Counted from the first letter of the stretch, positions 9,721 to 49,071 are shown. The stretch is DNA of 64,000 nucleotides from a bacterium (GCA_965261595.1 CBDHDG010000004.1:704001-768000), one strand, 5' to 3'. Notes: a model not told the origin generated them from the letters alone. Translations and numbers: made by a program.

Positions 9721-10182
9721 TTGGACCCTCCCTTGTGGACGGCCGAGCACGTCCGATTTCTGGAGACGGCGAGGGTGGGCCATCTCGCGACGGCCGACGG
9801 CCGTGGACGTCCTTCCGTCGTTCCCGTGGTGTTCGTCCTGGACGGCGGAAAGGTGTACACGCCCATCGACGGCAAACCCAAGGGCGACGCGGGGACACTC
9901 CGCCGGATCCGGAACATCCGGGAAAACCCCGCCGTCGCCTTCCTGGTCGACCGATACGATGAGGATTGGACGCGTCTGGCCTTCGTCCACATCCGGGGAA
10001 CCGCCGCCATCCTGAGCGCCGGGGCGGCCGGATCCGGTCCGGCGGACAGCGACGAATTTTCCAGAGCCGAGACCCTTCTCAGAGAGAAGCACCCCCAATA
10101 TCGTTCCGTTCCCCTGGGCGGTCCGGGAGGATTGATGATTCGAATCAACCCCAAGAGCTGCACCGCCTGGGGGCCGTTGTGA
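9721..10182 (+). CDS. PPOX-class (putatively F420-dependent) oxidoreductase
   Basis: ARVGHLATAD, VVPVVF, IDGKPK, LRRIRNIRENP, VDRYDEDW. Confidence 0.85.
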   Translation: MDPPLWTAEHVRFLETARVGHLATADGRGRPSVVPVVFVLDGGKVYTPIDGKPKGDAGTLRRIRNIRENPAVAFLVDRYDEDWTRLAFVHIRGTAAILSAGAAGSGPADSDEFSRAETLLREKHPQYRSVPLGGPGGLMIRINPKSCTAWGPL

Positions 10183-14125: not shown

Positions 14126-16501
14126 TCACAGCCGGAACTCCGGCCCACCCCCCTCCCCCCCCCCGGCCTGGATGATCCCCCACAACCGGAACGGTGTCAG
14201 GGGAACCTCATGAATCCGGATGCCGTGGGGTTCGAGCGCGTTCTCGACCGCGGCGACGATCGCGGCCGGGGCCGCCATCGTTCCGCCCTCCCCCGCGCCC
14301 TTGACGCCCAACGGATTGAAGGGTGACGGGCTCTCCATGTGGGAAAGCTCGAAATCCGGCACGTCCGTGGCCAACGGCAGGAGGTAATCCAGGAAGGTGG
14401 ACGCCAGGGGGGTTCCGTTCTCGTCAAACACCACTTCCTCGATCAACGCCTCCCCGATCCCGTGAACCACCCCGCCCTGGATCTGCCCGTCGAGCAGCAT
14501 GGGGTTAAGCACCCGGCCGCAATCGTGGGCGACGTGGTGGCGCAGGACTTTCACAAACCCCGTATGCGCGTCCACCTCGACCACAACGACGTGACACGCG
14601 GCGGCGGTCGCCGCCCGGCTCGGGGTGTAGTATTCGGAGACCTCGAGCCCGGGCGTCCGGCCGCTCATCATGATCCCCGGCACGCCCGCCGCCTCCTTGG
14701 CCAGCTCGCCGAACGCGACCGATCGATCGGGCGCCCCCCGGACGAAGACCTTTCCATCCGCGAGGTCCAGGTCCTCCGCCGAGGCCTCGAGGCGGGACGC
14801 CGCGCACTCGAACATTTTCTTCTTGAGGGCCTCCCCGCCCAGAAGAACCGAGTTCGCCGCCATCACCGCCACCCGGCTGGCGAACGTCCCGATGCCGTAG
14901 GGAATCGCGCGGGTGTCCCCCGTCACGACGGTGATGTCTTCGGGCGTCACGTTGAGGACGTCCGCCAATACCTGGGCCAGGACGGTTTCCGTGCCCTGCC
15001 CTTGCGGGGCCGCGCCGGTGGCGAGGAGGATCCGCCCGGAAGGCTCCACGCGGATCACCGCCCCCTCGAAGGGGCCGAAGCCGGTCCCCTCGACGTTGCA
15101 GCCGATGCCGATGCCGACGAGCCGGCCGTTCGCCGGATCCCCCTCTTCCCCCGGGCGGCGCACCCCCTTTTTGAATTCCTCATACCCCGTGGCTTCGAGG
15201 GCCTGGTCCATCAGCTTGGGATAGTCCCCGCTGTCGTACGTCATCATGCTTCCGTCCCGCGCCCGGAGTCCCACTTCGTAGGGCATGTCCTCGGGCTGAA
15301 CAAAGTTCCGGCGGCGGACCTCGGCGGGGTCCAGGCCCAGGGCGTGGGCAATGTGGTCGATCACCCGCTCCATGATGAAGGCGGCCTGGATGCGGCCGGC
15401 CCCGCGGACGGGGGCCACGGGGACCCGGTGGGTGTAAGCCGCTTCCAACACCCCTGAGAAGTTGGGGATTTTGTATGGGCCGGGAATGCACGTGAGAGAG
15501 AGCAGCGGGACAACGATGCTCCAGGGCAGATAGGCCCCCAAGTCGCAGATGCCGCGATCCCGCAAGGCCCGGATGCGGCCCTCATCATCGAACCCGATCT
15601 CCACCTCGTGGATCTGCTCGCGCTCCTGAACAGTCGTCTGGATATGTTCCAGGCGGTCCTCGATCCACTTGACGGACCCGCCCAGACGGATGGCCGCCCA
15701 GGCAATCACGGTGTCCTCGGGATAGGCATAAGCCTTCGGGCCGAATCCGCCCCCCACGTCCGGGGCGATGACGTCGATCGCGCTTTCCGGCCGGTCCAGC
15801 ATGTAGGCCAGGTCTTTGCGCATCAGATGAGGGGTCTGCGTGGAGGCGTAGAGGGTCAGGTGGTCGAACTTGGGATCGTACGAGGCCAGATGACCCCGGG
15901 TCTCCATGGCCCCGGACCCTCCGCGCTGCATCTTCAAACGGATCGTCTCCCGGCGCGGCGCCCGGGCCAGCGCTTTCTCCGCGTCTCCGATGTTGACCTC
16001 GAGGCGGGCCGCCAGGTTGTCGCCCAGGTCGTCGTGAACCAGGGGCGCGCCTTCCTTCAAGGCGTCGGCCGGATGGACCGTCGCCTCGAGGATTTCGTAG
16101 GACGCCCGAATGCCTTCGAGGGCGTCCTCGGCCCGCGCGCGGCTTTCCGCCAGAACAACGGCGACGGGCTCGCCCATGTAGCGCGTCTTGTCCTTCGCCA
16201 GGGGGACGGTGTTATGCGGCCGGAGCGCGGGATGGGGAACGGGGACGGGGTATTCCTTCCACGCCGCCCCCAGGCCTTCGGCGGTGAACGCGGCTGCGGC
16301 CCCGGCCTTCAAGGCCCCCGAGACATCGATGGATTCAATCCGGGCATGGGCGTAGGGAGACCGGAGGAAGGCGGCGTGCAGGGCGCCGGAATCGGGCAGA
16401 TCGTCGATGTATCGGCCATTCCCGGTCAGCAGCCGCTTGTCCTCGATCCGCGGAACGCGCGCACCGAAAAACCGGGGATTCAAAAGCGGGCCTGAGCTCA
16501 T
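14126..16501 (-). CDS. Xanthine dehydrogenase/CoxL-like molybdopterin-binding subunit
   Basis: RIEDKRLLTG, DVGGGFGPK, PVRGAGR, GQGTET, KGAGEGG. Confidence 0.92.
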   Translation of the reverse strand: MSSGPLLNPRFFGARVPRIEDKRLLTGNGRYIDDLPDSGALHAAFLRSPYAHARIESIDVSGALKAGAAAAFTAEGLGAAWKEYPVPVPHPALRPHNTVPLAKDKTRYMGEPVAVVLAESRARAEDALEGIRASYEILEATVHPADALKEGAPLVHDDLGDNLAARLEVNIGDAEKALARAPRRETIRLKMQRGGSGAMETRGHLASYDPKFDHLTLYASTQTPHLMRKDLAYMLDRPESAIDVIAPDVGGGFGPKAYAYPEDTVIAWAAIRLGGSVKWIEDRLEHIQTTVQEREQIHEVEIGFDDEGRIRALRDRGICDLGAYLPWSIVVPLLSLTCIPGPYKIPNFSGVLEAAYTHRVPVAPVRGAGRIQAAFIMERVIDHIAHALGLDPAEVRRRNFVQPEDMPYEVGLRARDGSMMTYDSGDYPKLMDQALEATGYEEFKKGVRRPGEEGDPANGRLVGIGIGCNVEGTGFGPFEGAVIRVEPSGRILLATGAAPQGQGTETVLAQVLADVLNVTPEDITVVTGDTRAIPYGIGTFASRVAVMAANSVLLGGEALKKKMFECAASRLEASAEDLDLADGKVFVRGAPDRSVAFGELAKEAAGVPGIMMSGRTPGLEVSEYYTPSRAATAAACHVVVVEVDAHTGFVKVLRHHVAHDCGRVLNPMLLDGQIQGGVVHGIGEALIEEVVFDENGTPLASTFLDYLLPLATDVPDFELSHMESPSPFNPLGVKGAGEGGTMAAPAAIVAAVENALEPHGIRIHEVPLTPFRLWGIIQAGGGEGGGPEFRL

Positions 16502-16873: not shown

Positions 16874-19162
16874 TTGACCGAATACACGATCCTGGGGAAG
16901 GCCCTTCCGCGCATTGACGGCAGGCCCAAGGCGACCGGCGCGTCAAACTACGCGGCCGACATATCGATGCCCGGCTGCCTTCACGGCCACATCCTGCGCA
17001 GCCCCTATCCCCACGCCCGCATCCTGAACATCGACACCTCCAAGGCGGAGGCCGTCAAGGGGGTCAAGGTCATCCTGACGGCCCGCGACCTGCCCGATGT
17101 CCATTACGGCATGTGGATCCTGGATCAGAGACTCTTCCAACCCGACAAGGTCCGATACATCGGCGATGAGGTGGCCGCCCTGGCGGCCGGGGACGAGGAC
17201 GCCGCCCAGGAAGCCCTGGACCTGATCCGGGTGGAATACGAAGAGCTTCCCGCCGTCTTCGAATCCGAGGACGCCCTGAAGCCCGGCGCCCCGTTGGTCC
17301 ACGAGGACTTCGCCCGGCACAAGGCCTATTTCGACGCGGCCGGGCGCGAGGGAAACCAGGTCTGCAAGGTCCGCTTCGGCTACGGCGACGTCGAGACGGG
17401 GCTTTCCGAGGCGGATGAGGTCATCGAAAACCGCTTCACCACCCACGCCAACCACCCGACCTATCTGGAGCCGCACGCGGCCCTGGCGAGCTGCGACGCG
17501 GCGGGAAGCCTGACGGTTTGGACGACCACCCAGGGGGTCTTTAAGGTCCAGGAATGGATCGCAATCCTCCTGGACATCCCGATGACCCGCGTGCGTGTCA
17601 TCGGGACCGCGGTCGGCGGGGGGTTCGGCGGAAAGAAGCCCCGGGTGGACCTCTACGCCGCCGCGCTGGCGTTCAAGGCGCGCGCGCCCGTCCGGATTGT
17701 CCTTGACCGCGAGGAGGACATGGCGACGACGAACAAGCGCCATCCGGCCGCCATCGACATCCAAACGGGCGTGAAACGCGACGGCGCCCTCACCGCCTGG
17801 GACTTTCGGATCGTCCTGAACACGGGCGCGTACGCCGATCACGGCCCCTCGATTCTGTCGTTCGGCGCGTTTCACGCCCGGGGGCCCTACAAAACGCCGC
17901 ACGTGAACATCGAGGGCCGGCTGGTGTACACCAACCGGAACATCAGCGGCGCGTTCCGGGGGTACGGCAACCCCCAGGTCGCCTTCGCCGTTGAATCCCA
18001 GATGGACATCATCGCCCGGCGCCTCGGAATCGATCCGGTGGAGCTTCGCCGCAAAAACGGCATCGGACCGGGCGACGCCATGGTGAACGGACAGCGGTAT
18101 CCCGAGGTCTGGTTCCGGGACACCCTGGAGCAGGCCGTCGAGGCGTTCGGGTGGGAAAAACCCAAAGAACCGCCGGCCAACGGGCGCAGGCGGGGGATCG
18201 GAATCGCCGCCGGCTCCCACCCGTCCGGGGGGTGGAGCTCCTCCGCGACGGTCAAGTGGATGGCCGACGGGACCCTCCAGGTCGTGACCGGAACGATAGA
18301 GATCGGCGGGGGAGAATACACCGTCGCCGCCCAGATCGCGGCCGAGGCCGCCGGCGTTCCCTACGAGAAGGTCCGCGTCGTCGCGGCCGATACGGACATC
18401 ACCCCCTACGAGCAGTTCACCGGCGCAAGCCGATCGACCTTCACCATGGGTCAGGCGGTCCGTCTGGCGGCGCTGGACGCCCGCCAGGAGCTGCTCCAAC
18501 GCGCGGCCGAGCTCCTCGAAGCCCCGGTGGAAGACCTGACCACCGGCCGGGAGCGGGTCTTCATCGCCTCCGCCCCCGGCCGGGGCGTGGCCTTCGCCGA
18601 AGTGGCCCAGGCGGCCAACCTCCATCAGAACGGACCGATTCTGGGGAAGGGGGCGTGCTGCCCGCCCGCGCCGCCCGCCGTCCGGGAATGCTGGGAGGGG
18701 GCGGCCATGCACGAGTTCCCCGCCCACGGCTATGCCGCCCACATCGCCGAGGTCGAGGTGGACGAAGAGACGGGGACGGTCGAGCTCATCCGGCTCATCT
18801 GTGCGCACGACATCGGCCAGGCCGTCAACCGCGGGGGCTTGGAGGGTCAAATCGAGGGAGGGGCCGCGCAGGGGATCGGCTTCGCCCTCATCGAGGAAAT
18901 GTGTTACGAGGGAGGCGTCCTCGTCAACGGCGCCCTGGTCGACTACAAGATCCCGACCATCCTGGACGTTCCGCCCATCGAGTATCGCTTCATCGAGAAG
19001 GCCGATCCCAACGGGCCCTTCGGCGCGAAAGGGGCGGGCGAGTCCGTCCTGGTCCCCACGGCCCCGGCCATCGCCAACGCCGTGTACGACGCCGTGGGCG
19101 CGCGGATCAAAGACCTTCCCCTCACGCCCGACAAGGTGCTTCGGGCCCTCCACAACATTTGA
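16874..19162 (+). CDS. Xanthine dehydrogenase family molybdopterin-binding subunit
   Basis: GGGFGGK, AFRGYGNPQ, GQIEGG, GAKGAGE. Confidence 0.92.
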   Translation: MTEYTILGKALPRIDGRPKATGASNYAADISMPGCLHGHILRSPYPHARILNIDTSKAEAVKGVKVILTARDLPDVHYGMWILDQRLFQPDKVRYIGDEVAALAAGDEDAAQEALDLIRVEYEELPAVFESEDALKPGAPLVHEDFARHKAYFDAAGREGNQVCKVRFGYGDVETGLSEADEVIENRFTTHANHPTYLEPHAALASCDAAGSLTVWTTTQGVFKVQEWIAILLDIPMTRVRVIGTAVGGGFGGKKPRVDLYAAALAFKARAPVRIVLDREEDMATTNKRHPAAIDIQTGVKRDGALTAWDFRIVLNTGAYADHGPSILSFGAFHARGPYKTPHVNIEGRLVYTNRNISGAFRGYGNPQVAFAVESQMDIIARRLGIDPVELRRKNGIGPGDAMVNGQRYPEVWFRDTLEQAVEAFGWEKPKEPPANGRRRGIGIAAGSHPSGGWSSSATVKWMADGTLQVVTGTIEIGGGEYTVAAQIAAEAAGVPYEKVRVVAADTDITPYEQFTGASRSTFTMGQAVRLAALDARQELLQRAAELLEAPVEDLTTGRERVFIASAPGRGVAFAEVAQAANLHQNGPILGKGACCPPAPPAVRECWEGAAMHEFPAHGYAAHIAEVEVDEETGTVELIRLICAHDIGQAVNRGGLEGQIEGGAAQGIGFALIEEMCYEGGVLVNGALVDYKIPTILDVPPIEYRFIEKADPNGPFGAKGAGESVLVPTAPAIANAVYDAVGARIKDLPLTPDKVLRALHNI

Positions 19163-23866: not shown

Positions 23867-24112
23867 ATGCGTCAGCGCGTGAACATTACGCTCGCGGAAG
23901 AAACGATCCGGATGCTCGACGGAGTGGCCGGCAAGGGCGAACGGAGCCGCCTGATTGATGAGGCGGTGCGGCACTTCGTGAAGGCGCGGCGCCGGGAAAC
24001 CCTCAGGACGCGGCTCAAGGAGGGCGCTCGGAAACGAGCTGAGCGGGACCTGCGCCTGGCCGAGGACTGGTTTCTCCTGGAAGAAGAATCATGGCGGCCC
24101 GACGCAAAATAG
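23867..24112 (+). CDS. Ribbon-helix-helix (CopG-like) antitoxin
   Basis: RVNITL...RSRLIDEAVR; AGGAGG RBS; overlaps the toxin gene. Confidence 0.85.
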   Translation: MRQRVNITLAEETIRMLDGVAGKGERSRLIDEAVRHFVKARRRETLRTRLKEGARKRAERDLRLAEDWFLLEEESWRPDAK

Positions 24113-24468
24113 CCTTTCCGAAACGTGGCCAGGTGTATCTGGTGAGCTTTGACCCGACCGTGGGCAAAGAAATCAGAAAGACTCGCCCCGCCGTCATTCT
24201 CCAGAACGATGTGGCCAACCGCTGGAGCCCGATCACGATTGTCGCCGCCGTGACCTCGCAGTTCGAGGAGCCGTTGTATCCAACCGAGGTGCGGGTCAAG
24301 GCATCCGAAGGCGGCTTGAGCGCCGATTCCGTTGTGCTTTTGAACCAGATCCGGTCAATCGACAAACGGCGCCTCGTGAAACGCCTCGGGGTGTTGAACC
24401 AGGATACGATGGCCCAGGTTGACCGGGCGATCATAGCGAGTTTGGGGTTGGTGAATATAGCGGGATGA
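24091..24468 (+). CDS. mazF: Type II toxin, PemK/MazF family endoribonuclease
   Basis: RGQVYLVSFDPTVGKEIRKTRPAVILQND, QIRSIDKRRL. Confidence 0.92.
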   Translation: MAARRKIAFPKRGQVYLVSFDPTVGKEIRKTRPAVILQNDVANRWSPITIVAAVTSQFEEPLYPTEVRVKASEGGLSADSVVLLNQIRSIDKRRLVKRLGVLNQDTMAQVDRAIIASLGLVNIAG

Positions 24469-26325: not shown

Positions 26326-26793
26326 GGGCGTTTTCCTTTCTGACAAACGGTAGCCGATGGATTGATTCGCGTGTGAAATGTTTCGTTCAACCGGACAAAT
26401 ATAGGCTGCCATTCGTCAGGAAGCGAAAAAATACGGCCGAACATGACGACCCTGGTGAAAACGCTGTAGAACCCGGCGGCCGGCCGGCCCCACGGGCTAC
26501 GTCCGCCCATTCGCCCCTGTATCTCCGATCCAAACCCGGTGGGATCTCCAGTAGTCCATCCCGGCGAATTGCTTGAACGCTTCACACCCGATGGGGGTCA
26601 CGATGAGGTTGTGGCACAGCGTCCTGCTTGCCGCCCTGGCCGAAAATGGGACTCCTTTCCAGTGTGCGGATTTGTTCTTGTATTCCGTTTGATCCCGGTT
26701 GCCTCCGCCTTCTCTCTTGTGCTTGAATTCAAGAGGCCCAAGTAGTGAGTTTTCAAGGCGAGGTGAGAAAACAGCCCGAATTTCCAGGCCGTC

Positions 26794-26880
26794 GCCGGGG
26801 TGGCGGAACGGTAGACGCAGCGGACTTAAAATCCGCTGGGGCCAAGCCCCGTGAGGGTTCGACTCCCTCCCTCGGCACCA
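26794..26880 (+). tRNA. tRNA-Leu (anticodon TAA)
   Basis: GCCGGGG/CCTCGGC acceptor stem, anticodon arm GCGGA-CTTAAAA-TCCGC, long variable arm, GGTTCGACT, 3' CCA. Confidence 0.97.
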
Positions 26881-27030
26881 CTGATTCGTTGGATGAGGCC
26901 CCCGGCCGATGCGGACCGGGCGGCCGCTTGCGGCCGTTTTCCGACTGCCGTATGGTTGATCCGAAATTGAAAACCTGATTCGATTCCCACCCGGTCCAAT
27001 CCCTTCCCACTGAATCCGGAGGATTCCAAA

Positions 27031-27639
27031 ATGACCCCAGATCCCTCTTTCCCCGCCTCCCGCCCCGCCCCGTCCGACGGCTTGACGAAGGTGCTCGTCG
27101 TCGCGGACTGCGAGAACAAGGAGAAGCTGCTCAGCAAGGTTCGCGCCTACCAGATGGTCGACCGAGGTGGGAAAGACGCCTCATCCGGCGGGTCTCCGCC
27201 CGGAGGGGGAGGGGTCGAGGTAAAAGACGGCCCTGACTTCACCTTGACCTTCTGTTCGGACGAACCCCCGCACCTGCTGGGCGACGGTAATTTTCCACAA
27301 CCCCTGTCCTACATCGCGGGCGGAATCGGAACGTGACTGTTGAGCAACTTGAAGCTGTGCGCTTCAAAAATGAATCTCCGCATCCAATCGGCCCGAGTCC
27401 GGGTGGAGATGGACTGCTTCCAGGGAGGGTCGGTCCTCCAGGGCACGGTGGTCAGCGGATGCAGCGAGGTCAGGTCGGACTTCGAACTCGAATCGGACGA
27501 GCCCGATGAAAAGCTCCGTCTCCTGATCCGGAACGCCAAGCGCGCCTGTTTCGCGGAAAACATGGTCCAGACGACCATTCCGCTCAGGAGCTCCGTGAAG
27601 CTCAACGGCAAGCCGATCGACGTTCCGCTGGACGACTGA
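27031..27639 (+). CDS. OsmC-related selenoprotein (in-frame TGA at 27334-27336 = Sec, codon 102; 202 aa)
   Basis: Two in-frame ORFs joined across TGA: SDEPPHLLGDGNFPQPLSYIAGGIGT-U-LLSNL; C-terminal NAKRACFAE with the second Cys; SECIS-like hairpin downstream. Confidence 0.85.
27349..27367 (+). promoter_or_regulatory. Putative bacterial SECIS element
   Basis: TTGAAGC-TGTGC-GCTTCAA perfect 7-bp stem; the loop begins 20 nt after the UGA, with GU at loop positions 2-3. Confidence 0.75.
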
Positions 27640-27673
27640 CCGGAACATCTCGCCAGCGGCTTGTACGAAGCGG

Positions 27674-29197
27674 ATGAAAAAAAGCGCCATGAGAAGCACA
27701 TCAAGCCATCCCGTTGACCCGGGGATTGCCGGCAGGCCATTCCCCGGCCCGCTCACGCTGGCGCTGACATCCGCCCTTCCATTGCTCTTCGCCTTCCCGA
27801 CGCCGCTCCATGCGCATGGAATTCAGGAGGTCCGGTATTCGCCCCCCATACCGGGCTGGCTCTTCCTGATCGGCGGGGGCCTCGTCGTCGCCCTCTCCTT
27901 CGTCTTCATCATCCTTCGCCCGGACCGGGGGGCGGGCTCACCCGGATACAGCCGCCGGGAAATCCCCGCCGGCCGGGGCGCCCGGTCCTCGGGCCGCCTG
28001 CTCTCGGGGGCCGGTCTCCTCCTGGCCGCCCTTATTCTGGCCGGCGGATTCATCGGCGACACGCGGTCCGAGGACTCGCTCCCGCCCGTTCTGGTCTGGA
28101 CCGGCTGGTGGATGGGGCTGACTTGGCTGACGCTGGTCATCGGCAACGCCTGGCCTGCGCTCGACCCGTGGAACACGGTGCGCCGCTTCTTTGGACGGCG
28201 GATGCGCCGCCCCTTGTCCCTGGGCCTCCCCTACCCCGCCTGGCTGTCGGCCTGGCCGGCCGTACTCCTGCTTCTCGGATTCGTCTGGTTCGAGCTGGCC
28301 TGGTTTCAGGCCCGGGGCGGCGGCGGCGTCGTCAACTATTTCCTGCTCTTCACGGCCTGGCTCTGGGCGGGGATGGCCGTCTTCGATCCCGAAAGCTGGT
28401 GGAAGAACGCCAACCCGTATACGCGATTCTTCCAGGTCCTGGGCAAATTCAGTCCGCTTGAAAAACGCGGGGACCGCATCGAAGTCCGCATACCGGGAAC
28501 GGCCCTGCAGGCAAGCCGGCTGGGACACGCCTCGGAGGCGGTTTTCGTCATCGTCGTCCTGTTCGCGGTGACCTTCGACGGTTTTGTCGCCACCCCGGAA
28601 TGGTGGGTCATCCTTCGGCGGATGATGCTCAAGGCCTTCGGAATCCTCCCCAGGAGCCTGGCGTTTCACGCCTCGTTCCTCTTTGCGATCCTGGCGGGGG
28701 CGGTCCTGTTCTCCGCCGCGTATTTCACGGTCTGCGGCGTCATGAGCAGGCTGTCGCGCGGCAAGCGGAGGACGGCGGAGGTCGCCGGCGAGTTCGCCAT
28801 GACCCTCATCCCGATTGCGGCGGCCTATCACATCGCCCACTTCATTCCCGCCGTTCCGGGCCGGGTGACCCGTCTCGTCCAAGCGGTCTCGGATCCCTAC
28901 GGCTTGGGTTGGAACGTGTTCGGATGGCACGCGTTCAAATGGGACGTTCAATGGACCCCGGAAATCGCCGGGGTCATCTGGGTGATCCAAACGGCCCTCA
29001 TCGTCCTGGGGCACATCGCCTCCATCTGGTCTTCCCACCGGAAGGCTTTGGCGATTTTCAAGGAGAAATCAATGGCGGCGAAGGTCGAGCTGCCCATGGC
29101 CCTTTTGATGATCTGCTACACGGTCATCAGCCTGTGGATCATCTCTCGACCCGTCCTGAATGGACCCCTGGTCCCGCTTCCGGGGATCACGCCATAA
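27674..29197 (+). CDS. Multi-pass membrane protein of unknown function
   Basis: Many hydrophobic segments, signal-like ...PLHAHG, LIPIAAAYHIAH, SDPYGLGWNVFG; start uncertain. Confidence 0.75.
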   Translation: MKKSAMRSTSSHPVDPGIAGRPFPGPLTLALTSALPLLFAFPTPLHAHGIQEVRYSPPIPGWLFLIGGGLVVALSFVFIILRPDRGAGSPGYSRREIPAGRGARSSGRLLSGAGLLLAALILAGGFIGDTRSEDSLPPVLVWTGWWMGLTWLTLVIGNAWPALDPWNTVRRFFGRRMRRPLSLGLPYPAWLSAWPAVLLLLGFVWFELAWFQARGGGGVVNYFLLFTAWLWAGMAVFDPESWWKNANPYTRFFQVLGKFSPLEKRGDRIEVRIPGTALQASRLGHASEAVFVIVVLFAVTFDGFVATPEWWVILRRMMLKAFGILPRSLAFHASFLFAILAGAVLFSAAYFTVCGVMSRLSRGKRRTAEVAGEFAMTLIPIAAAYHIAHFIPAVPGRVTRLVQAVSDPYGLGWNVFGWHAFKWDVQWTPEIAGVIWVIQTALIVLGHIASIWSSHRKALAIFKEKSMAAKVELPMALLMICYTVISLWIISRPVLNGPLVPLPGITP

Positions 29198-39588: not shown

Positions 39589-41883
39589 TCAAGCGTTTTT
39601 TCCTCGGAGGGCGTCGAGCACCCGCTCCGCCGTCACGGGAAGCTCCCTGATCTGGACGCCGATGGCGTCGAACACGGCGTTGGCGATGGCCGGCGCCGTC
39701 GGGACGATCCCCGGCTCGCCCACCCCTTTCGCGCCGTAAGGTCCCGTCGGCTCGCCCTCTTCCACGAGCAGCGCGGCGATCTCCGGCGTGTCCATCGAGG
39801 TGGGAATTTCGTATTGGGCGAAATCGGCGGTCAGCATCCTGCCCGTTCCGGCTTCGAAGACCAGCTCCTCCATCGTTCCATAGCCGATCCCCTGGGCGAC
39901 CCCGCCCTCGACCTGCCCCTCGACGACGAGGGGGTTCAGGGCCCGGCCCACGTCGTGGGCGGCGACGAAACGCACGAGCTCGACCTCGCCCGTCTCCGGG
40001 TCCACCTCGACCTCGGCGAACTGGGCGCCGAAGGGCGGCGCGTTGGTGGGCGGCGTATAGTCGGCGCGGCCGACGATCTCATGCGGCGCGTCGCCGTATT
40101 GGGCGTCGAAGGCCACCGCGCCCACGCTCAGCGTCTTGCCCGGCGTCGATTTCACGGTGACCTCGCCGTCCACGATGTCGAGGTCGTCCACCGAGGCCTC
40201 GAGCATCTTGGCGGCGTGCTCCAGGACCTGCTGCCGCGCGTCCGCCGCGGCCAGCTTCGCCGCCATCCCCCCCACGTAGGCCTGGCGCGTCGCGTACGCC
40301 CCGTTGTCGTAGGGAGAAAGGTCGGTGTCGATGACGCGGTTGGTCTCGACATCGTCCAGCGAAACCCCGAACGCCTCGGCCGCCACCTGGGCGGTCGTCG
40401 TCTCGATCCCCTGGCCGGTGTCGGCGACGCCCATGCTCAGTTGAAGACCCCCGTCCTCGAGAACCCGGGCCGTGGCCGAGGAAGCCTCCAGGGCGAACGG
40501 GGCCGCGCCGCTGGCGATGGTAAAGACGGCCGCGCCGACGCCGCGCAGCTTCCCGTTGCGCCCGCCATTCGCCGACCGCTTCTCTTTCCAGCCGATGGCC
40601 TCCGCCCCCGCGTCGATGCACTTGCGCAGCTCGCAGGACTCGATGGTCCACTGCGTGGCCGGATGCACGTCCCCCGATCGGATGTGGTTCTTCCGGCGCA
40701 GGTCCAGCGGGTCCATCCCGATCTCCCGGGCCAAGTGGTCCATGTGCAGCTCGGAGGCGTACGTCCCCTGCGGAACGCCGTAGCCCCGGAAGGCCCCGGC
40801 GATGGGAAGGTTCGTATAGACCGTCCGGCCGTCGAAGAGAAAGTTCGGCGAGCGGTAGAGCCCCACCCACATCGCGCCCAAGTAGGCGGTGACGATGGGT
40901 CCGTGGCTGCTGAACGCGCCCGTGTTCGCGACGGCGTGAAGGGAGCGCGCCGTGATGACGCCGTCCTTCGTCACGCCCGTTTTCGATGTCATCACGTAGG
41001 GGTGCCGGTGCCGGGTGGCGCTGAACGTCTCTTCCCGGGTGTATTCGAGCTTGACGGGGCGGTGTCCCGCCGCTTTCGACAGCAGGGCGCAAAGCGGCTC
41101 CTCCTGCATGTCCTGCTTGCACCCGAACCCGCCGCCGACGATGGGCTTGAACACCCGAATCTTCCGCACGGGGACGCCCAGGGCATCGTGCATCAGCCGG
41201 CGGAGGGTGAAGGGAATCTGCGTCGAGGACCACACGTTCAACTTGCCGGTCGCCTCGTAGTGGCAGATCGCCACGACGGGCTCCAGCATGGAGTGCGCCT
41301 GGCCGGGGACCTCGCACCGGGTCTCGATGACGAAATCGGCCTCGGCGAACCCCTTCTCGACGTCCCCATCCTCCATGCGGATGACGGCCACCGTGTTCTT
41401 GCCGTGCTCAAGATCCTCCTGGATGTCGACGGCGTCTTCCGCCACGCTGTCCACCGGGTCGAAGCACGCGGGGAGGATCTCATACTCGACCTCGATGAGG
41501 TCGATGGCCTCCCGGGCGAGGTCATTCGTATCCGCGGCGACGGCCGCGATCTTGTCGCCGACGTACCGCACCTTGTGGTCCAGGATGAACTGGTCGTCGG
41601 GCGTGGGGTCCGGGGGGGGGTGGCCCGCCGTGGTGAACTTGTTCCGCGGGACGTCGTCCGGCGTGATGACCGCGCGCACGCCGGGAAGCGCCAGCGCCTT
41701 GGACGCGTCCACCTTCAGAATCCGGGCGTGGGCGTGCGGGCTCCGCAGGATCTTCGCGTGGAGCATCCCCGGAAAGGTCATGTCCACGGTGTAAATCCCC
41801 GTGCCGGCGGCCTTGTCGGCGGCGTCCTTCAACGGCAATCCGTGACCGACGACTTTCAAAGGCTCAATGCCCATGCCTATCAA
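39589..41883 (-). CDS. Xanthine dehydrogenase family molybdopterin-binding subunit
   Basis: GGGFGCKQ, AFRGYGVPQ, GAKGVGE. Confidence 0.92.
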   Translation of the reverse strand: MIGMGIEPLKVVGHGLPLKDAADKAAGTGIYTVDMTFPGMLHAKILRSPHAHARILKVDASKALALPGVRAVITPDDVPRNKFTTAGHPPPDPTPDDQFILDHKVRYVGDKIAAVAADTNDLAREAIDLIEVEYEILPACFDPVDSVAEDAVDIQEDLEHGKNTVAVIRMEDGDVEKGFAEADFVIETRCEVPGQAHSMLEPVVAICHYEATGKLNVWSSTQIPFTLRRLMHDALGVPVRKIRVFKPIVGGGFGCKQDMQEEPLCALLSKAAGHRPVKLEYTREETFSATRHRHPYVMTSKTGVTKDGVITARSLHAVANTGAFSSHGPIVTAYLGAMWVGLYRSPNFLFDGRTVYTNLPIAGAFRGYGVPQGTYASELHMDHLAREIGMDPLDLRRKNHIRSGDVHPATQWTIESCELRKCIDAGAEAIGWKEKRSANGGRNGKLRGVGAAVFTIASGAAPFALEASSATARVLEDGGLQLSMGVADTGQGIETTTAQVAAEAFGVSLDDVETNRVIDTDLSPYDNGAYATRQAYVGGMAAKLAAADARQQVLEHAAKMLEASVDDLDIVDGEVTVKSTPGKTLSVGAVAFDAQYGDAPHEIVGRADYTPPTNAPPFGAQFAEVEVDPETGEVELVRFVAAHDVGRALNPLVVEGQVEGGVAQGIGYGTMEELVFEAGTGRMLTADFAQYEIPTSMDTPEIAALLVEEGEPTGPYGAKGVGEPGIVPTAPAIANAVFDAIGVQIRELPVTAERVLDALRGKNA

Positions 41884-42446: not shown

Positions 42447-42920
42447 TCAATACTTTCCTTCCGCGACGGCCTCGATGGCGTCGATGATCTTCACGTATCC
42501 GGTGCACCGGCACAGGTTGCCCGAGATCCCCACCTTGATCTCCTGGCGCGTAGGCTTCGGGTATTCCTCCAAAAAAGCCTCCGCCGCGCAAAGCATCCCG
42601 GGCGTGCAAAATCCGCACTGGATCGCGCCCAACTCGATGAACGCCTCCTGAAGCGGATGAAGGGAATCCACGCTCCCCATCCCCTTCACCGTGCGCAGGG
42701 CCTTCCCGTCCGCCTGGACCGCGAGCATGCAGCACGTGTTCTCCGCCTGGCCGTCCACCACCACCACGCAAGCCCCGCAGTCCCCCTTCTCGCAACCGTT
42801 CTTCACCTCCGTCGCGCCCAGCTCGTAACGAAGCGCGTTCAGAAGAGACAGGTTCGTCGGAAAACTACGCTCCATCTCCTCGCCGTTCAACGTGAATTTC
42901 ACCGTCCGCTCTTTGTCCAT
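42447..42920 (-). CDS. (2Fe-2S) small subunit of xanthine dehydrogenase family
   Basis: GCEKGDCGAC, QCGFCTPG, GNLCRCTGY. Confidence 0.93.
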   Translation of the reverse strand: MDKERTVKFTLNGEEMERSFPTNLSLLNALRYELGATEVKNGCEKGDCGACVVVVDGQAENTCCMLAVQADGKALRTVKGMGSVDSLHPLQEAFIELGAIQCGFCTPGMLCAAEAFLEEYPKPTRQEIKVGISGNLCRCTGYVKIIDAIEAVAEGKY

Positions 42921-42964
42921 GATCCCTTTTCTTTCGGGCTGGCGCTTTGCACAAAAAATGCGGG

Positions 42965-43828
42965 TCAGGCCTCTTGGCCCGAGGCCCGGCGAATCAGACG
43001 CTTCGTCAGCACGTCGCACATCAGCGTACGGTACTCCGCCGACGCCCGAATGTCGTCGATCGGCGTCGCCGCTCCAGACGCCAAACGGCCGCACTCCTCT
43101 ATCACCGATTCCTCCGGAGGACCGGAACCGGTCAGCAATCCCTCCGCCGCAGATATCCGTATCGGAACCGGCGCCACCGCACCAAGAGATATCGCCGCGC
43201 CCTCGCAACTCCCGTTCGACATCCGGAGAACCACCGCCGCGCTCACCACGGAGATCGCCATCGCCTTGCGGCGGCCAAGCTTGTAGTACCCGTAACCCGA
43301 GCCCGAGCCCAAACCCTCGAACTCGATCTCCGTCAACAACTCGTCCGGACGACGTACCGTCTGCCGCACCCCCGTCACAAATTCGTTCACCGCCACACGG
43401 CGCTCACCCGATGCGCTCTGAAGAACCGCCACCGCGTCCAGCGCCTGAAGCGGCGGAATGCAATCCGCCGCAGGCGAGCCGTCCATCAGGTTCCCCGCAA
43501 CCGTCGCGCGGTTCCGGATCGGTGGACCCGCAAAGCTCAACGCACACTCACGAAGAAGCCCCGCCTTCTCACCGATCAAGTCCGAGCGGAGCAGGTCCTC
43601 GACGCTCGCACGTGCGCCCAGCTTGATCTTGCCCCCCTCCTCGCGAATGTAGCGAAGGGAGTCGATGTAACTCACGTCCACCACCACTTCCGGAAGCTTC
43701 TTCCGGTCCCGTATCTCCACCACCAGGTTCGTGCCGCCGGAAAGAACGTGCCAGCCCTCTCCAGCGTCCTTCATCACCTCCAACGCCTCCTCCAAGCTCC
43801 GAGGCGCCGTGTAATCAAAATTCTTCAT
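42965..43828 (-). CDS. FAD-binding subunit of xanthine dehydrogenase family
   Basis: SGGTNL, IRNRATVAGN, DDIRASAEYR. Confidence 0.93.
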   Translation of the reverse strand: MKNFDYTAPRSLEEALEVMKDAGEGWHVLSGGTNLVVEIRDRKKLPEVVVDVSYIDSLRYIREEGGKIKLGARASVEDLLRSDLIGEKAGLLRECALSFAGPPIRNRATVAGNLMDGSPAADCIPPLQALDAVAVLQSASGERRVAVNEFVTGVRQTVRRPDELLTEIEFEGLGSGSGYGYYKLGRRKAMAISVVSAAVVLRMSNGSCEGAAISLGAVAPVPIRISAAEGLLTGSGPPEESVIEECGRLASGAATPIDDIRASAEYRTLMCDVLTKRLIRRASGQEA

Positions 43829-43943: not shown

Positions 43944-45293
43944 CTAGTAATCCCGCTCCAGAAACCGGCCCGTTCCCGGCTTGCCGGTGATTTCCCCGTC
44001 CCGGGCGCACACCTGGCCCCGGACCATCGTGAGCTCCGGCCAGCCCCGGACGGTCTTCCCCTCCCAAGGCGTGCAGTCGGAGATGTGGTTCAGGTCGGCG
44101 GCGCGAATGGTGACCTCCCGCTCCGGATCGACGATCACCAGGTCCGCGTCCGAGCCGGGGGCGATCAATCCCTTTCGGGGATAGAGCCCGAACGTCCGGG
44201 CGGGGGCCGCGGAGATGAGGTCCACCATCTTCTCGGCCGAAATCCGGCCGGCGTTCACGCCGTAGTGCGTCATCACCGGGAGCAGCGTCTCCAGCCCCGC
44301 CGATCCGACGATGGCGTCCCAGAAGTTGGGTTTGTGCTTAACGGCGTCCGGGGCGTGATCGGATCCAACCACGTTGATGCACCCCGCCTGAATGGCCGCC
44401 CAAAGGGCCTCGTTGTCTTCGTGGGTCCGGAGGGGCGGGTTGCACTTCCCCAGCACCCGGTCCGTGTCCTCCGCCGCGAGGGTAAGATAGTGGGGACAGG
44501 TTTCCGCGATCAGCCGGACCCCCCGCTTTCGGGCCTCGGCCAGGACGTTGGGCCCCTCTTTGATGGTGATGTGAACGATGTAGAGCGTGGCGCCGGTGAG
44601 CTGGGCGAAGAAGCAGATTCGCCACATCGCCTCCTCCTCGGTGAAATTGGGGCGCACGTCCCGCCACTGGAAGTCGTCCCGGCCCGAGGCCATGAGCTCG
44701 TCCTTGATGACGAAGATGGGCTCGATGTTCTCGCAATGCACGAGGGCGACGGCCTTCTCGCCCAGCGCGGCGATGGCCTGAAGCCCCTTCCAGATGGTCC
44801 CGTCATCGGTCGGCTCGAGGGGCGGCACGGCCTCGGAGCCCCGATAAGGCATGAAGAACTTGAACGAGGGAACGCCCATCTTCGCGACGGCGGGGATCTC
44901 CTCGACGTGGTTCAGCGAAAAGACCACCGCGTGAACGCTGGCGTCGGAAAAAGCGATGGCCTCCCACTTCTCCTTGCGCCGCCGGACGCCTTCCACGAGG
45001 CTGCCCGGCTCGATCATCATGTGCAGGTTCGTCGTCACCCCGCCGGTCACGGCGTTGGACGTGCAGCGGATCCCTTCCTCGAGCGGCCAATCGGGCCAGT
45101 CCCAATGACAATGGGAATCGACGACGCCCGGAACCAGCCACTTGCCGCCCGCGTCGATCACCTCGGCGGCGGACGGCGGATTCGCGTCCGACCCGCACGC
45201 CGCAATCTTCTCGCCGGAAATCCCGACCCACCCCTCGAACCGGCTGCGGGCGTTGATGACGACGGCGTTGTGGATGACGGTGTCGAGGTTCAT
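43944..45293 (-). CDS. Dihydropyrimidinase/allantoinase-like cyclic amidohydrolase
   Basis: DSHCH, SFKFFM, VHCEN, ETCPHYL, SDHAP. Confidence 0.9.
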   Translation of the reverse strand: MNLDTVIHNAVVINARSRFEGWVGISGEKIAACGSDANPPSAAEVIDAGGKWLVPGVVDSHCHWDWPDWPLEEGIRCTSNAVTGGVTTNLHMMIEPGSLVEGVRRRKEKWEAIAFSDASVHAVVFSLNHVEEIPAVAKMGVPSFKFFMPYRGSEAVPPLEPTDDGTIWKGLQAIAALGEKAVALVHCENIEPIFVIKDELMASGRDDFQWRDVRPNFTEEEAMWRICFFAQLTGATLYIVHITIKEGPNVLAEARKRGVRLIAETCPHYLTLAAEDTDRVLGKCNPPLRTHEDNEALWAAIQAGCINVVGSDHAPDAVKHKPNFWDAIVGSAGLETLLPVMTHYGVNAGRISAEKMVDLISAAPARTFGLYPRKGLIAPGSDADLVIVDPEREVTIRAADLNHISDCTPWEGKTVRGWPELTMVRGQVCARDGEITGKPGTGRFLERDY

Positions 45294-45323: not shown

Positions 45324-45818
45324 CTAGCCGCCGGACGATTCATTTTCCGGCGACGCCTCCACGGCCGCTGAAACGGCGTCGATGATCCCGGTATACCCCG
45401 TGCACCGGCAGAGGTTTCCCGAGATGGCTTCCCGGATCTCCTCCCGCGTCGGCCGGGGGTTGTCCTTCAGGAACTCCGTCAGGGTCATCAGGAAACCCGG
45501 CGTGCAGAATCCGCACTGGAGGCCGTGATGGGTCTTGAAGGATTCCTGGAGGCCGCTCATGGCCTCCGGCGTCCCCAGGTCCTCGACGGTCCGGATCTCC
45601 CGGCCGTCCGCCTGAACGGCGAACAGGAGGCAGGAGCGCGCCCCGCGTCCATCCACGAGGACCGTGCAGGCCCCGCAAACGCCGTGCTCGCACCCCACGT
45701 GCGTCCCCGTCAGACCCGCGTCCTCCCGGATGAAGTCGCTCAGCAGCTTCCGCGTCGGGACCGCCGCCGTGTAATCCGTCCCGTTGATCCGGACCGTGAT
45801 GGTCCTCTCCCTGCTCAT
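45324..45818 (-). CDS. CoxS-like (2Fe-2S) subunit
   Basis: GCEHGVCGAC, QCGFCTPG, NLCRCTGY. Confidence 0.93.
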   Translation of the reverse strand: MSRERTITVRINGTDYTAAVPTRKLLSDFIREDAGLTGTHVGCEHGVCGACTVLVDGRGARSCLLFAVQADGREIRTVEDLGTPEAMSGLQESFKTHHGLQCGFCTPGFLMTLTEFLKDNPRPTREEIREAISGNLCRCTGYTGIIDAVSAAVEASPENESSGG

Positions 45819-46705
45819 TCCGGGCGCCCTCCCGCGTTCTGAAAGGCCTCGGCGAGACACGCGCGGGTCAGGCGCGCGGCCAGGTCGCGGCGAAAGGCCA
45901 CCGTGGCGTGAATGTCTTCATCCGGGTCGGCCTCTTCTCCGGCGATCCGGCCGGCCTCGTCGATCCGCGCGGCCGTCGGCTCGGCCCCCTCCAGCGACTC
46001 GGACGCCCGGACGGCCCGGACCGCCGTCGGCCCGACGCCCATCAGGGCCACGCTCGCCCTTTTGCACACACCGTCTTCCACCGTCACCAGGGCCATCGAT
46101 CCGGCGATGGCGAAATCCCCGTTCCGCCGGGACAGCTCATGGACCGCGAAGCCTGAGCCGGGCGGGTGAACGGGGATCCGGAAACCCATGAGCAGGTCCG
46201 TCGGCGCCAGCGTCGTCGTCAGGTACGTGACGAAGAAATCCGCCGCCGCTTCTTCCCGGACCTCGCCCGCGGCGTTTCGGATCAGGATTCCGGCGTCGAG
46301 CGCGAGCAGGGCCGACGGGATCTCCCCCGCCGGGTCGTTGTGCGCCGCGCCGCCGCCGATGGTGCTCCGGTTGCGAATTTGGGCGTGTCCAATCCAGGAC
46401 GAAACCAGGGCCAACAGACCGCACTTCTCCCGGATCAGCGCCGATTCCTCCAGGTCCCGGTCCCGGGTCATTGCGCCGATCTCCAGACATCCCCCTCCCT
46501 CCCCCTCCCCCTCGCGGATGTAGGCCAGCTCCTCCACGCCGTTGAGGTCGATGAGCGCCGAGGGCCGGGCGAGGCGGAAATTCATCAGCGGGACGAGGCT
46601 CTGCCCCCCCGCCAGGAGCTTTCCGTCCTCGCCGTGCTCCGCCAGGAGCGCCATCGTCTCATCGACGGTCCGGGGATCGAAGTAATCGAAGGCCACGGGC
46701 TTCAT
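45815..46705 (-). CDS. CoxM-like FAD-binding subunit
   Basis: LAGGQSLVPLMNFRLARP, IRNRSTIGG. Confidence 0.92.
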   Translation of the reverse strand: MKPVAFDYFDPRTVDETMALLAEHGEDGKLLAGGQSLVPLMNFRLARPSALIDLNGVEELAYIREGEGEGGGCLEIGAMTRDRDLEESALIREKCGLLALVSSWIGHAQIRNRSTIGGGAAHNDPAGEIPSALLALDAGILIRNAAGEVREEAAADFFVTYLTTTLAPTDLLMGFRIPVHPPGSGFAVHELSRRNGDFAIAGSMALVTVEDGVCKRASVALMGVGPTAVRAVRASESLEGAEPTAARIDEAGRIAGEEADPDEDIHATVAFRRDLAARLTRACLAEAFQNAGGRPE

Positions 46706-49071
46706 GGACGCGCTCCCCCCTCCCCCTCCCCTCCCCGCTTTTCCCGGAGAAGGCTGTGCAGAATCCCGGGACCCAGGGGAACCGCGTCGATCTCGACGCC
46801 GAACTCGGACAGCGCGTCCTGAACGGCCTGGGCGATGACCGTGGGCGCGGGGATCGTCCCCCCCTCGCCGCACCCCTTGACCCCCAGGGGGTTGATGGGG
46901 GACGGCGTGACCAAGTGGTGAATCTCGACCTCCGGGACCTCCGAGGCGGTGGGGACGCAATAGTCCATCAGGCTCGCGGTGAGCAACGCGCCGCTCTGCT
47001 TGTCGTGAACCAGCTTCTCGTAGAACGCGCCGCCCAGGCCCTGGGCGAAGCCCCCCTTGATCTGGCCGTCCACAATCTTCGGGTTGATCATGTTCCCGCA
47101 GTCATGGACGATGACGTACTTCAGGATTTTAATGTCGCAGCGATCGGGATCGACCTCGACGATGGCCGCGTGCGTCCCGCTGGAGAAGGCCGCCGTTTTG
47201 GGGACGTGGAACTCGGTCGCCTCCAGGCCGGGGATGAAGTCGGCGGGGAGGTTCCCCCGGAGGGGATTCGCGAGACGCGCCACGTCCCGGAAGGTCAGCT
47301 TTCTCGCCGGGGCGCCCTCGACGTAAACATGGCCGTCATTGAAGACAAGGCTTTCAGGCGGCGCCTCCAGCTCCTCCGCGGCGACCTTGGCCATCATCTC
47401 CCAGACCTTCACGGCCGCCTTGTGGACGGCCGAGCCCGTCACGACGGCCGTCCGGGAGGCGTAATTGCCGACCCCCCAGTGGAACTTGTCCGTATCGCCC
47501 GTCGCGACGCGAATCCGGCCGGGATCGATTCCGAGCGCCTCGGCGGCGATCTGCGAAAACGTGGTTTCCGCCCCCTGCCCCGTGGCCCCGCTTCCCGTCC
47601 CCACGAAGACATCCCCCGTCGGCTCGACGTACACCCTCGCGCCTTCATACGGGCCGATGCCGGTCCCCTCGACATAGTTGGCGACGCCGATGCCGACGTA
47701 CCGGCCTTCTTTTCGGTAAGCCGCTTTTCCGCTTTTGCGGAATTCCTCATACCCGACCGCCTCGACGGCGGTGCGCTGGCAGGCGGGGTAATCGCCGCTG
47801 TCATAGATGACGTCCGAGGTGTCCTGATAGATCATCCCCATGTCCCACGGGAACTCGTCCGGCTGAATCAGGTTTTTCGCGCGAAGCGCCAGCGGGTCCA
47901 TGCCGAGGGCCTTGGCGGCCTCGTCGAACAGCCGCTCGATAACGAAGACGGCCTGGGGACGGCCGGCGCCGCGGTAGGGCGTCACCGTGATCCGGTTGGT
48001 GTAGACCGACCGGAGGCGGGACCGGTAGTTCCGCACGCGGTACGGGCCGGGCAGGGTGGTGCTCGTGACGATCCCGACGATGATCCCGTATGGGACGTAG
48101 GCCCCCGCGTCGAGGAGGAAGTCGTCCCGGACGCCGAGGAGGGTCCCGTCCTTCGCGAAGGCGATCTCGGCCTGGTGGACCTGGGCGCGCTCCTGGGTGC
48201 TCGCGAGGAAGTGCTCCCGCCGGTCCTCGATCCACTTGACGGGCGAGCCCAGAAGCATCGCGCAGTGCGGAACCAGGATCTCTTCGGGATAGAAGATGAT
48301 GGCCTTCGGTCCGAACCCGCCGCCCACGTCGGGCGCGATGAGCCGCACGTCGTGCTCCGGCAGGCCGAGGATCTGGGCCAGCCCGGCCCGCAGCGGGACC
48401 GGGGCCTGCGTCGAGACATGGACCTTGAGCTTGCGGTCCCGCGCGTCCCACTCCGCCAGGACCCCCCGGCCCTCCATCGCGATGGAGGCCCCTCGGTCGA
48501 TGACGAACCGCTTCTTGATCACGACGTCGGCCCCGGCGAAGGCCCCATCGGGGTCCCCCACGACCTGGAGGAAATCCGCCGCGACGTTGGAGCCGATCTC
48601 TTCGTGGACGAGAGCCCCCCCCTCATCCAGCGCCGCCTCCACCTCCGTCACCGGCGGGAGGGCCTCGTAATCCACCTCGATGAGCTCGAGGGCGTCTTCG
48701 GCGGTGTAGCGGTCTCCGGCGACGACGACGGCGACCGGCTCGCCTTCATAGCGGACCTTGCCGACGGCCAGCGGGGTCGGCGTCCTGGGGTCCTTGATCG
48801 CGGCGTGCGGGACAAGCTGCGGAAGCGGGGCGGCGAGATCGCCCAGGTCGGCGGCCGTCAAAACGAGCCTTACGCCGTCCAGGGCGCTTGCGGCGTCGGT
48901 CCGGATGGAGCGGATCTTCGCGTGGACGTGCGGGCTCCGCAGGACGGCGGCGTGCAGGCATCCGGGCGGATGGATGTCATCCACAAACCGGCCGCGGCCC
49001 GTGAGGAGACGCGCATCCTCGAACCGGGGCTGGCTCTTACCGAAATAACGGCCCGTCTCGACCCCCTTCAT
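46702..49071 (-). CDS. CoxL-like (form II type) molybdopterin-binding subunit
   Basis: RFEDARLLTG, DVGGGFGPK, PYRGAGRP, KGCGEGG. Confidence 0.92.
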   Translation of the reverse strand: MKGVETGRYFGKSQPRFEDARLLTGRGRFVDDIHPPGCLHAAVLRSPHVHAKIRSIRTDAASALDGVRLVLTAADLGDLAAPLPQLVPHAAIKDPRTPTPLAVGKVRYEGEPVAVVVAGDRYTAEDALELIEVDYEALPPVTEVEAALDEGGALVHEEIGSNVAADFLQVVGDPDGAFAGADVVIKKRFVIDRGASIAMEGRGVLAEWDARDRKLKVHVSTQAPVPLRAGLAQILGLPEHDVRLIAPDVGGGFGPKAIIFYPEEILVPHCAMLLGSPVKWIEDRREHFLASTQERAQVHQAEIAFAKDGTLLGVRDDFLLDAGAYVPYGIIVGIVTSTTLPGPYRVRNYRSRLRSVYTNRITVTPYRGAGRPQAVFVIERLFDEAAKALGMDPLALRAKNLIQPDEFPWDMGMIYQDTSDVIYDSGDYPACQRTAVEAVGYEEFRKSGKAAYRKEGRYVGIGVANYVEGTGIGPYEGARVYVEPTGDVFVGTGSGATGQGAETTFSQIAAEALGIDPGRIRVATGDTDKFHWGVGNYASRTAVVTGSAVHKAAVKVWEMMAKVAAEELEAPPESLVFNDGHVYVEGAPARKLTFRDVARLANPLRGNLPADFIPGLEATEFHVPKTAAFSSGTHAAIVEVDPDRCDIKILKYVIVHDCGNMINPKIVDGQIKGGFAQGLGGAFYEKLVHDKQSGALLTASLMDYCVPTASEVPEVEIHHLVTPSPINPLGVKGCGEGGTIPAPTVIAQAVQDALSEFGVEIDAVPLGPGILHSLLREKRGGEGEGGARP

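Follow-up and report, generated by a model that had tools for sequence, protein, structure and literature searches.

An OsmC-related gene in a bacterial genome, probably read through an in-frame UGA as a selenoprotein

Positions 27031-27639 of a 64,000-nucleotide stretch of bacterial DNA (GCA_965261595.1 CBDHDG010000004.1:704001-768000; the whole stretch is called the window below) hold a reading frame that is interrupted once, at codon 102, by an in-frame UGA. The best overall explanation of our results, to which we assign a probability of roughly 0.85, is that this is one gene of the OsmC superfamily in which UGA102 is read as selenocysteine (Sec). Judged from the sequences compared here, it is highly probable that the codon is a translated Sec codon, and the interval is most likely one gene rather than two broken halves; actual insertion of Sec at UGA102 is what we infer from these comparisons. 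As an initial annotation of this DNA had described, an upstream open reading frame (ORF; 27031-27336), which starts with ATG and ends with TGA (27334-27336), and a downstream one (27340-27639) share a frame and meet at a TGA-CTG junction. The read-through translation runs ...PQPLSYIAGGIGT-U-LLSNLKLCAS..., where U is codon 102, and the fused protein contains the two motifs named in that annotation, SDEP (residues 76-79) and NAKRA-C-FAE, the latter including Cys173. The ATG start at 27031 is backed by a related protein fragment, P0002, with the same MTPDP N-terminus. In the stored query (P0001), C was written for U and one spurious terminal C was carried over from the true stop, neither of which has any bearing on the searches or the predicted fold.

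By its matches to curated models, the protein is a member of the OsmC superfamily, subfamily 'OsmC-related (seleno)protein'. The NCBIfam model of that name (NF041052, OsmC_like_Se) scores 127.1 bits against a curated cut-off of 95, with residues 71-193 on model positions 22-144 of 144, and the Pfam OsmC model (PF02566) scores 51.1 bits over residues 84-186 against a gathering threshold of 27.5; both matches span the TGA. At E values up to 1, no NCBIfam family came up besides NF041052 and the Ohr model considered below. An OsmC/Ohr-type alpha/beta fold is predicted by AlphaFold2, run with the profile alignment (predicted local distance difference test, pLDDT, 85.7; predicted template modelling score, pTM, 0.77), with residue 102 near the start of a long helix (91-113), Cys173 where helices 159-172 and 174-180 meet, and a disordered loop rich in glycine, serine and proline (53-63). 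In a Foldseek comparison of this model with the PDB, the best matches were the OsmC-like structures 2opl (E 3.5e-10) and 3cje (E 4.2e-08), followed by Ohr and OsmC structures at E 1e-5 to 1e-3 and 10-21% identity. The same two chains were closest when a profile built from 65 full-length sequences was searched against solved chains: 3cje (Jannaschia sp. Jann_2040; E 1.9e-28) and 2opl (Geobacter GSU2788; E 7.7e-21) were followed by 9wo1, 2onf and 1vla. Among the five solved OsmC-type chains with alignment shown, the column of Sec102 is Cys in all five and Cys173 aligns with a second Cys in four. Both Cys positions are kept in 3cje (GC..TQ and GCF), whereas 2opl is without the second, and both structures differ from the window protein in having Cys instead of Sec.

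A near-length word search of protein sets gave only two homologues, because Sec forms are split there; this being too thin, an exhaustive HMMER search was needed, and it returned 370 relatives at E values up to 1e-3. We aligned 66 rows of 130-230 residues, of which 64 are informative, the query and the misaligned fragment P0002 being set aside. The initial annotation had raised the question of whether Cys or U aligns with codon 102, and to this the alignment gives a clear answer: Cys stands there in 59 of the 64 informative rows (Ser in four, Gly in one), as it does in the five solved chains. Column 173 is Cys in 62 of the same 64 rows. Glu78 of the DEP motif is E in 63 of the 66 rows, and in alignment A6 the preceding D77 is invariant and E78 nearly so. 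When 151 proteins besides the query were sorted by extent, 101 spanned position 102, 44 were C-terminal parts, four were N-terminal parts, one started at residue 102 itself and one (P0058) had no match at the threshold. Of the C-terminal parts, 41 of 44 start no more than 12 residues from the predicted start, and two of the four N-terminal parts end exactly at residue 101, a pattern that we read as the footprint of a conserved in-frame stop at which gene callers have split the gene. The forecast of the initial annotation that standard pipelines would call such a gene a pseudogene was right in so far as gene callers do split the relatives (44 C-terminal and two N-terminal parts), but not in so far as NCBI holds a curated selenoprotein model for the family. 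Separately, the query matches twice along many relatives of 320-420 residues (P0005, P0034, P0037, P0040 and others), which points to OsmC-like domains doubled in tandem, and in P0058, a protein of 2099 residues, the query was matched in 12 stretches.

At the level of DNA, a single scan of species-representative genomes with the pattern [VI]RNAK[RQG][GA]CF yielded 37 related loci, variously labelled Nitrospinota, Binatia, Tectomicrobia, Betaproteobacteria, Burkholderiales, Acidimicrobiia or plain 'bacterium'. This sample represents only the subfamily closest to the query; within it, TGA stands opposite U102 in 35 of the 37 loci and TGT in the other two (L004 and L006, both labelled Binatia). 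The nearest relative, L001 from a Nitrospinota metagenome-assembled genome (MAG), is 77% identical by tblastn and 82% identical over 132 tree columns, and the second nearest, L002, is 66% identical by tblastn; both keep the TGA, and the gene order of L002 matches that of the window over about 10 kb. Several of the loci are paralogues from the same genome (L001/L007/L010, all from one MAG; L002/L009; L003/L032; L016/L029; L020/L030; L023/L036; L013/L037), giving two to three OsmC-like genes per genome, all with TGA at the same codon; tblastn found no second OsmC-like copy in the window.

We placed the window gene in a tree of 58 rows, comprising the window, the 37 loci and the 20 closest full-length Cys representatives, while about 45 other full-length representatives and all fragments were left out (LG+G4 model, midpoint root, Sec/Cys site masked, support by the Shimodaira-Hasegawa-like approximate likelihood ratio test, SH-aLRT, only). 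The window clusters with L001 and L002 (support 97). The Cys forms L004 and L006, together with the Cys protein P0004, fall inside a set of eight rows (five Sec, three Cys; support 95), beside the Sec form L005. At least four changes of the Sec/Cys label are needed on this tree, which means that near relatives have swapped Sec for Cys or Cys for Sec.

The initial annotation had also pointed to a perfect 7-bp hairpin after the UGA, with its loop starting 20 nt past that codon and a GU early in the loop, and the sequence agrees on each count: 19 nt lie between the UGA and the loop, which begins at the 20th nt and has G27357 as its second and U27358 as its third position. A range for this UGA-to-loop distance is applied by bSECISearch. 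Taken alone, the hairpin is weak evidence and not beyond chance. The window holds 64 perfect 7-bp hairpins with loops of 3-8 nt (about one per kb), against a shuffle mean of 43, and a loose rule for hairpins resembling a selenocysteine insertion sequence (SECIS) was satisfied at 33 of the 469 TGA sites with at least 25 open codons on each side. Since the hairpin is weak on its own, the case rests on comparison with relatives.

We used an ungapped alignment of the 63 nt from the TGA onward in the 36 TGA forms (the window plus 35 loci) for this comparison. Columns 24 (G) and 25 (T) are invariant in all 36, column 4, directly after the TGA, is C in 35, and the loop reads GTA in 32, GTG in two (including the window) and GTT in two. 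UGAC is a weak termination context. In the helix formed by columns 16-23 and 27-34, 76.4% of cells are paired, against 61.3% in shuffles and 26-54% when the helix is slid by one to three columns, and six of the eight pairs have changed on both sides. Covariation scores 0.406, compared with 0.154 in shuffles, and none of 500 shuffles reached any of the five measures, with the caveat that related sequences can exceed shuffles without any structure. The changes on both sides are mostly in pairs 18-32 (GC 18, UA 13, CG 1), 19-31 (GC 17, AU 11, GU 7, UA 1) and 20-30 (CG 22, AU 12, GC 2), and RNAalifold independently predicts helix 18-22/28-32. The core common to the relatives is 27351-27355 paired with 27361-27365 in window coordinates, while the outer pairs 16-34 and 17-33, formed in five and eight of the 36 sequences, are a feature of the window's subclade. 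Most relatives have a G-C-closed GUA triloop; in the window hairpin the loop is 5 nt long and the stem is extended outwards by two A-U pairs.

Of the Sec forms, 27 form all six core pairs and the remaining nine form five of the six. The Cys forms L004 and L006 form one and three of them, respectively, though their peptide is nearly the same, NLKLFA(I/L). Nested among Sec forms, these two (L004, 10217; L006, 8413) have lost the hairpin and are a clean natural control for decay of a SECIS after Sec/Cys exchange. A domain that spans the TGA, a TGA kept in 35 of 37 loci and a hairpin that is conserved in position and covaries jointly lie far beyond chance. The selenoprotein reading of the initial annotation gains backing from four sides: the Cys alignment, the TGA or TGT codon in relatives, the covarying hairpin and the NF041052 score.

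Selection on the two sides of the TGA was compared through the ratio of nonsynonymous to synonymous substitution rates (dN/dS), calculated by the Nei-Gojobori method with a custom script. With L001 the upstream and downstream values were 0.231 and 0.213, with L002 0.184 and 0.175; the two halves were similar against L004-L006, and L003 gave 0.570 upstream and 0.278 downstream. By these comparisons, purifying selection on the downstream half equals that on the upstream half. Past the TGA, the window and each of the four Sec-form loci examined (L001, L002, L003, L005) have exactly 100 further open codons. At third codon positions the GC content (GC3) is 0.77 before the TGA and 0.83 after it, compared with 0.68-0.91 in other supported genes of the window; both halves show the signature of coding sequence at this position.

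The family itself is not new, as the initial annotation had already stated. An 'OsmC-like protein' was reported in 2005 as a new selenoprotein family by Zhang, Fomenko and Gladyshev (PMC1088965), on three Sec sequences with COG1765, the motif UxxT and a predicted SECIS, and OsmC-like selenoproteins are listed in reviews of 2022 (PMC9312934) and 2026 (PMC13188914). A literature search on 'NF041052' found no paper. The window gene thus adds a member to a family known since 2005 and provided with a curated NCBI model, and it represents no new kind of biology. Like the published members and those covered by the model, it scores above the cut-off, would carry Sec at the first conserved Cys position, has Cys homologues, and shows a stem-loop with a G in a small apical loop directly after the UGA; unlike them, it has a longer N-terminus, which includes the disordered loop 53-63.

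If UGA102 is read as we propose, a ribosome reaching it would find the downstream mRNA folded into the hairpin, with G-U in the apical loop. The hairpin would act as a bacterial SECIS and, presumably by binding SelB, recruit it together with Sec-tRNA(Sec), which would outcompete release factor 2 and allow translation to run 100 codons further. The product would fold in the OsmC/Ohr manner, with Sec102 at the first conserved Cys site of Cys-type relatives and Cys173 at the second. Ohr and OsmC enzymes work through a pair of a peroxidatic and a resolving cysteine. By analogy, the selenolate of Sec102 would attack a hydroperoxide, Cys173 would capture the resulting selenenic acid in a selenenylsulfide, and the enzyme would be regenerated by an external thiol reductant. 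On this analogy we lean modestly towards hydroperoxide reduction as the reaction. The term 'peroxide reductase' would follow from membership of the superfamily, and two points weigh against this putative activity: with 14.3 bits on the Ohr model (NF052637), whose cut-off is 240, the protein falls outside the Ohr subfamily; and the account of the family in PMC1088965 describes COG1765 only as a 'predicted redox protein'.

The alternative that survives best, less probable than hydroperoxide reduction but by no means negligible, is that the gene encodes a real selenoprotein that is not a hydroperoxide reductase, and that Sec102 and Cys173 serve the reduction or isomerisation of disulfides or persulfides, or act on a specific small molecule. 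It would fit the missed Ohr model and the lack of any other NCBIfam family at E values up to 1, and also the generic names borne by the nearest structures, 3cje and 2opl ('OsmC-like protein' and 'Hypothetical protein' in the sequence search; 'OsmC-like hydroperoxide resistance protein' and 'osmc-like protein' in the Foldseek titles). The two to three Sec paralogues per relative genome suggest diversified substrates, and a third Cys, C27, is kept in 12 of 13 long-form sequences. Against such a role, the two-residue arrangement and the fold match OsmC and Ohr, the DEP glutamate is nearly invariant, and no neighbouring gene hints at another pathway. The thiol peroxidases compared here (C. violaceum OhrB, 6eb4; E. 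coli OsmC, 1qwi; T. maritima OsmC, 1vla) share the fold of the window protein, and in 1vla the first Cys aligns with Sec102 and the second with Cys173, but the similarity is remote and the window protein belongs to neither subfamily.

Cys27 (27109-27111) lies in a D-C-E-N-type motif in the first predicted beta-strand of an N-terminal extension; the 13 long-form sequences are the window and the upstream regions of L001-L011 and L032, and the single exception, L010, has Ile. It is conceivable, though we think it unlikely, that the window gene represents a distinct long form, in which an N-terminal beta-hairpin extension (residues 20-44, confidently modelled) with conserved C27 forms a three-residue relay with Sec102 and Cys173, or docks a dedicated reductant.

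Several results weigh against selenocysteine at UGA102 and against the hairpin as a SECIS. None of selA, selB and selD was found among the 105 ORFs of at least 150 residues in the window, and no tRNA-Sec was found in the window by ARAGORN or Rfam, or in the flanks of the 37 loci. Folding of the 27334-27400 region, called for in the initial annotation, returned the hairpin in the minimum free energy (MFE) fold, but the 67-nt fold has z = 0.02; a 42-nt fold reaches -8.0 kcal/mol and z = -1.15, and is equalled by 24 of 200 shuffles. Rfam gave nothing credible at 27200-27500 even at E values up to 10, and across the window only tRNA reached its gathering score. The SECIS of E. coli fdhF has a loop G-U and a bulged U. 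The window element resembles the fdhF type as a short hairpin inside the coding region just 3' of the UGA, with the loop G-U about 20 nt after it, but its stem, of 6-8 bp, has no bulged base, is not unusually stable and has no Rfam match. As the hairpin lies within coding sequence, its covariation could partly mirror coupled amino-acid changes (KLCAS versus ARYAH), and the Cys-form DNA control consists of two sequences only. The sampling of TGA was limited to the subfamily nearest the query, and 35 of 37 is not a family-wide proportion. Finally, the window has UxxS where the published motif is UxxT, a motif that is descriptive, drawn from three sequences and not defining; among the 36 Sec forms this position is T in 31, S in four and A in one, and the window and its three nearest relatives all read U-L-L-S.

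We regard as improbable a reading in which this organism has lost its Sec machinery or decodes the UGA in a way that does not involve Sec, so that the product ends at codon 101 or the gene is a very recent casualty. Besides the lack of Sec machinery in the 64-kb window, it could draw on the fact that crude screens recognised no second selenoprotein gene there. Two screens based on GC3 missed the OsmC-like gene itself and are void; a screen based on hairpins had this gene among its 33 sites, and the other 32 were by eye without plausible coding or redox-motif context, which is a weak negative. Against loss of the machinery stand the intact downstream half, under purifying selection equal to that upstream, a perfect hairpin with the conserved loop G-U, and the nearest relatives L001 and L002, which keep the TGA, L002 sharing the gene order as well. 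Table 2 of PMC13326102 gives 54 selenoprotein genes for FO_M_Nitrospinota_01, the MAG that is the source of locus L021, and thus some relatives come from selenoprotein-rich lineages; one selenoprotein per 64 kb is about what would be expected of a genome with some 50. We infer that selA, selB, selC and selD are present elsewhere in the genome.

A pseudogene or artefact, with the TGA arising in an ordinary Cys-type OsmC gene through nonsense mutation or through a sequencing or assembly error, we consider very improbable. A change from TGT or TGC to TGA takes one base, and pipelines without selenoprotein logic would yield two fragments; against this, 35 of 37 independent loci, spread over several phyla, have TGA at this codon, the covarying hairpin is found in TGA forms only, and there is no decay downstream in dN/dS or GC3. 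Two separate small genes, for which one might cite the TTG that opens the second ORF at 27340 and the ATG (Met113) chosen by gene callers in relatives, or a TGA that is a sense codon genome-wide, are hardly credible, as one domain model and one predicted fold cross the junction, the break lies inside helix 91-113, the downstream starts are not preceded by any visible ribosome-binding site, and the stops of 38 family-supported ORFs in the window (TGA 29, TAG 5, TAA 4), together with this gene's own final TGA, indicate local recoding rather than a changed genetic code.

Table 1. Positions in the window of the proposed selenoprotein gene, its sequence elements and the adjacent tRNA gene.
Feature	Position	Strand	Remarks
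tRNA-Leu (anticodon UAA)	26794..26880	+	150 nt upstream of the gene; ARAGORN, Rfam tRNA 59.2 bits; context only
Shine-Dalgarno-like GGAGG	27018..27022	+	8 nt before the ATG; read from the sequence
OsmC-like selenoprotein coding sequence (proposed)	27031..27639	+	202 codons, in-frame UGA at codon 102, stop TGA 27637-27639
GAA codon, Glu78 of the conserved DEP motif	27262..27264	+	
UGA codon 102, proposed selenocysteine codon	27334..27336	+	next base C (UGAC)
SECIS-like hairpin	27349..27367	+	arms TTGAAGC 27349-27355 and GCTTCAA 27361-27367, loop UGUGC 27356-27360
TGT codon, Cys173 (NAKRA-C-FAE), candidate resolving cysteine	27547..27549	+	

The surroundings of the gene are shared in part with L002, in which the same tRNA-Leu (UAA) lies directly upstream of the orthologue (9786-9872). 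A consensus scan found no promoter-like site in 26400-28000, and no sigma-70-like promoter was found between the tRNA-Leu and the selenoprotein gene. The hairpin was also considered as a terminator or promoter element and this was rejected, neither consensus scan giving a site at 27349-27367. At a distance of 35 nt from the selenoprotein stop begins a 507-residue ORF (27674-29197, +) that matches no Pfam or NCBIfam family and whose N-terminus, judged from the raw sequence, looks hydrophobic; its counterpart in L002 (10710-12140) is 69% identical and in the same position, none being found in the other 36 loci. Five large subunits of molybdenum hydroxylases of the xanthine-dehydrogenase/CO-dehydrogenase type (1-1449, 14126-16501, 16874-19162, 39589-41883 and 46702-49350) occur in the window, as do flavin adenine dinucleotide (FAD) and iron-sulphur (small/medium) subunits of such enzymes (42447-43828, 45324-46960); some models of this class are selenium-dependent, and these were never the best match. 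The window also holds two hydantoinase/dihydroorotase-type amidohydrolases (43944-45293, 56576-57964), an FdhD-like sulfurtransferase (57977-58819) and a MazF/PemK-like toxin ORF (24091-24468, +; Pfam PF02452, E 2.1e-32), whose start is overlapped by an 81-residue ORF without a family (23867-24112, +), a candidate antitoxin. The methyltransferase domain (residues ~120-231) of the protein at 54701-55771 (+) bears a weak resemblance to the corresponding part of NCBIfam methyltransferase-selenoprotein fusion families, the fusion models scoring 65-76 bits against cut-offs of 460-575, and this ORF gave no sign of an in-frame Sec codon.

The interval 27031-27639 should be annotated as a single coding sequence with Sec102, rather than as two hypothetical ORFs or a pseudogene. 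If it is a Sec gene, the host is a probable selenocysteine user, which predicts selA, selB, selC and selD elsewhere in its genome and probably more UGA-containing genes. Should the long form with C27 prove real, the two to three Sec paralogues per genome would serve separate substrates rather than being redundant peroxidases, and this would concern selenoprotein-rich lineages labelled Nitrospinota as well as some Tectomicrobia and Betaproteobacteria genomes. The comparative set assembled here, with 36 TGA forms, a hairpin at fixed distance, an invariant loop G-U, three covarying pairs and two nested Cys forms without the hairpin, provides this family with a well-supported SECIS and could be used to refine selenoprotein gene finders.

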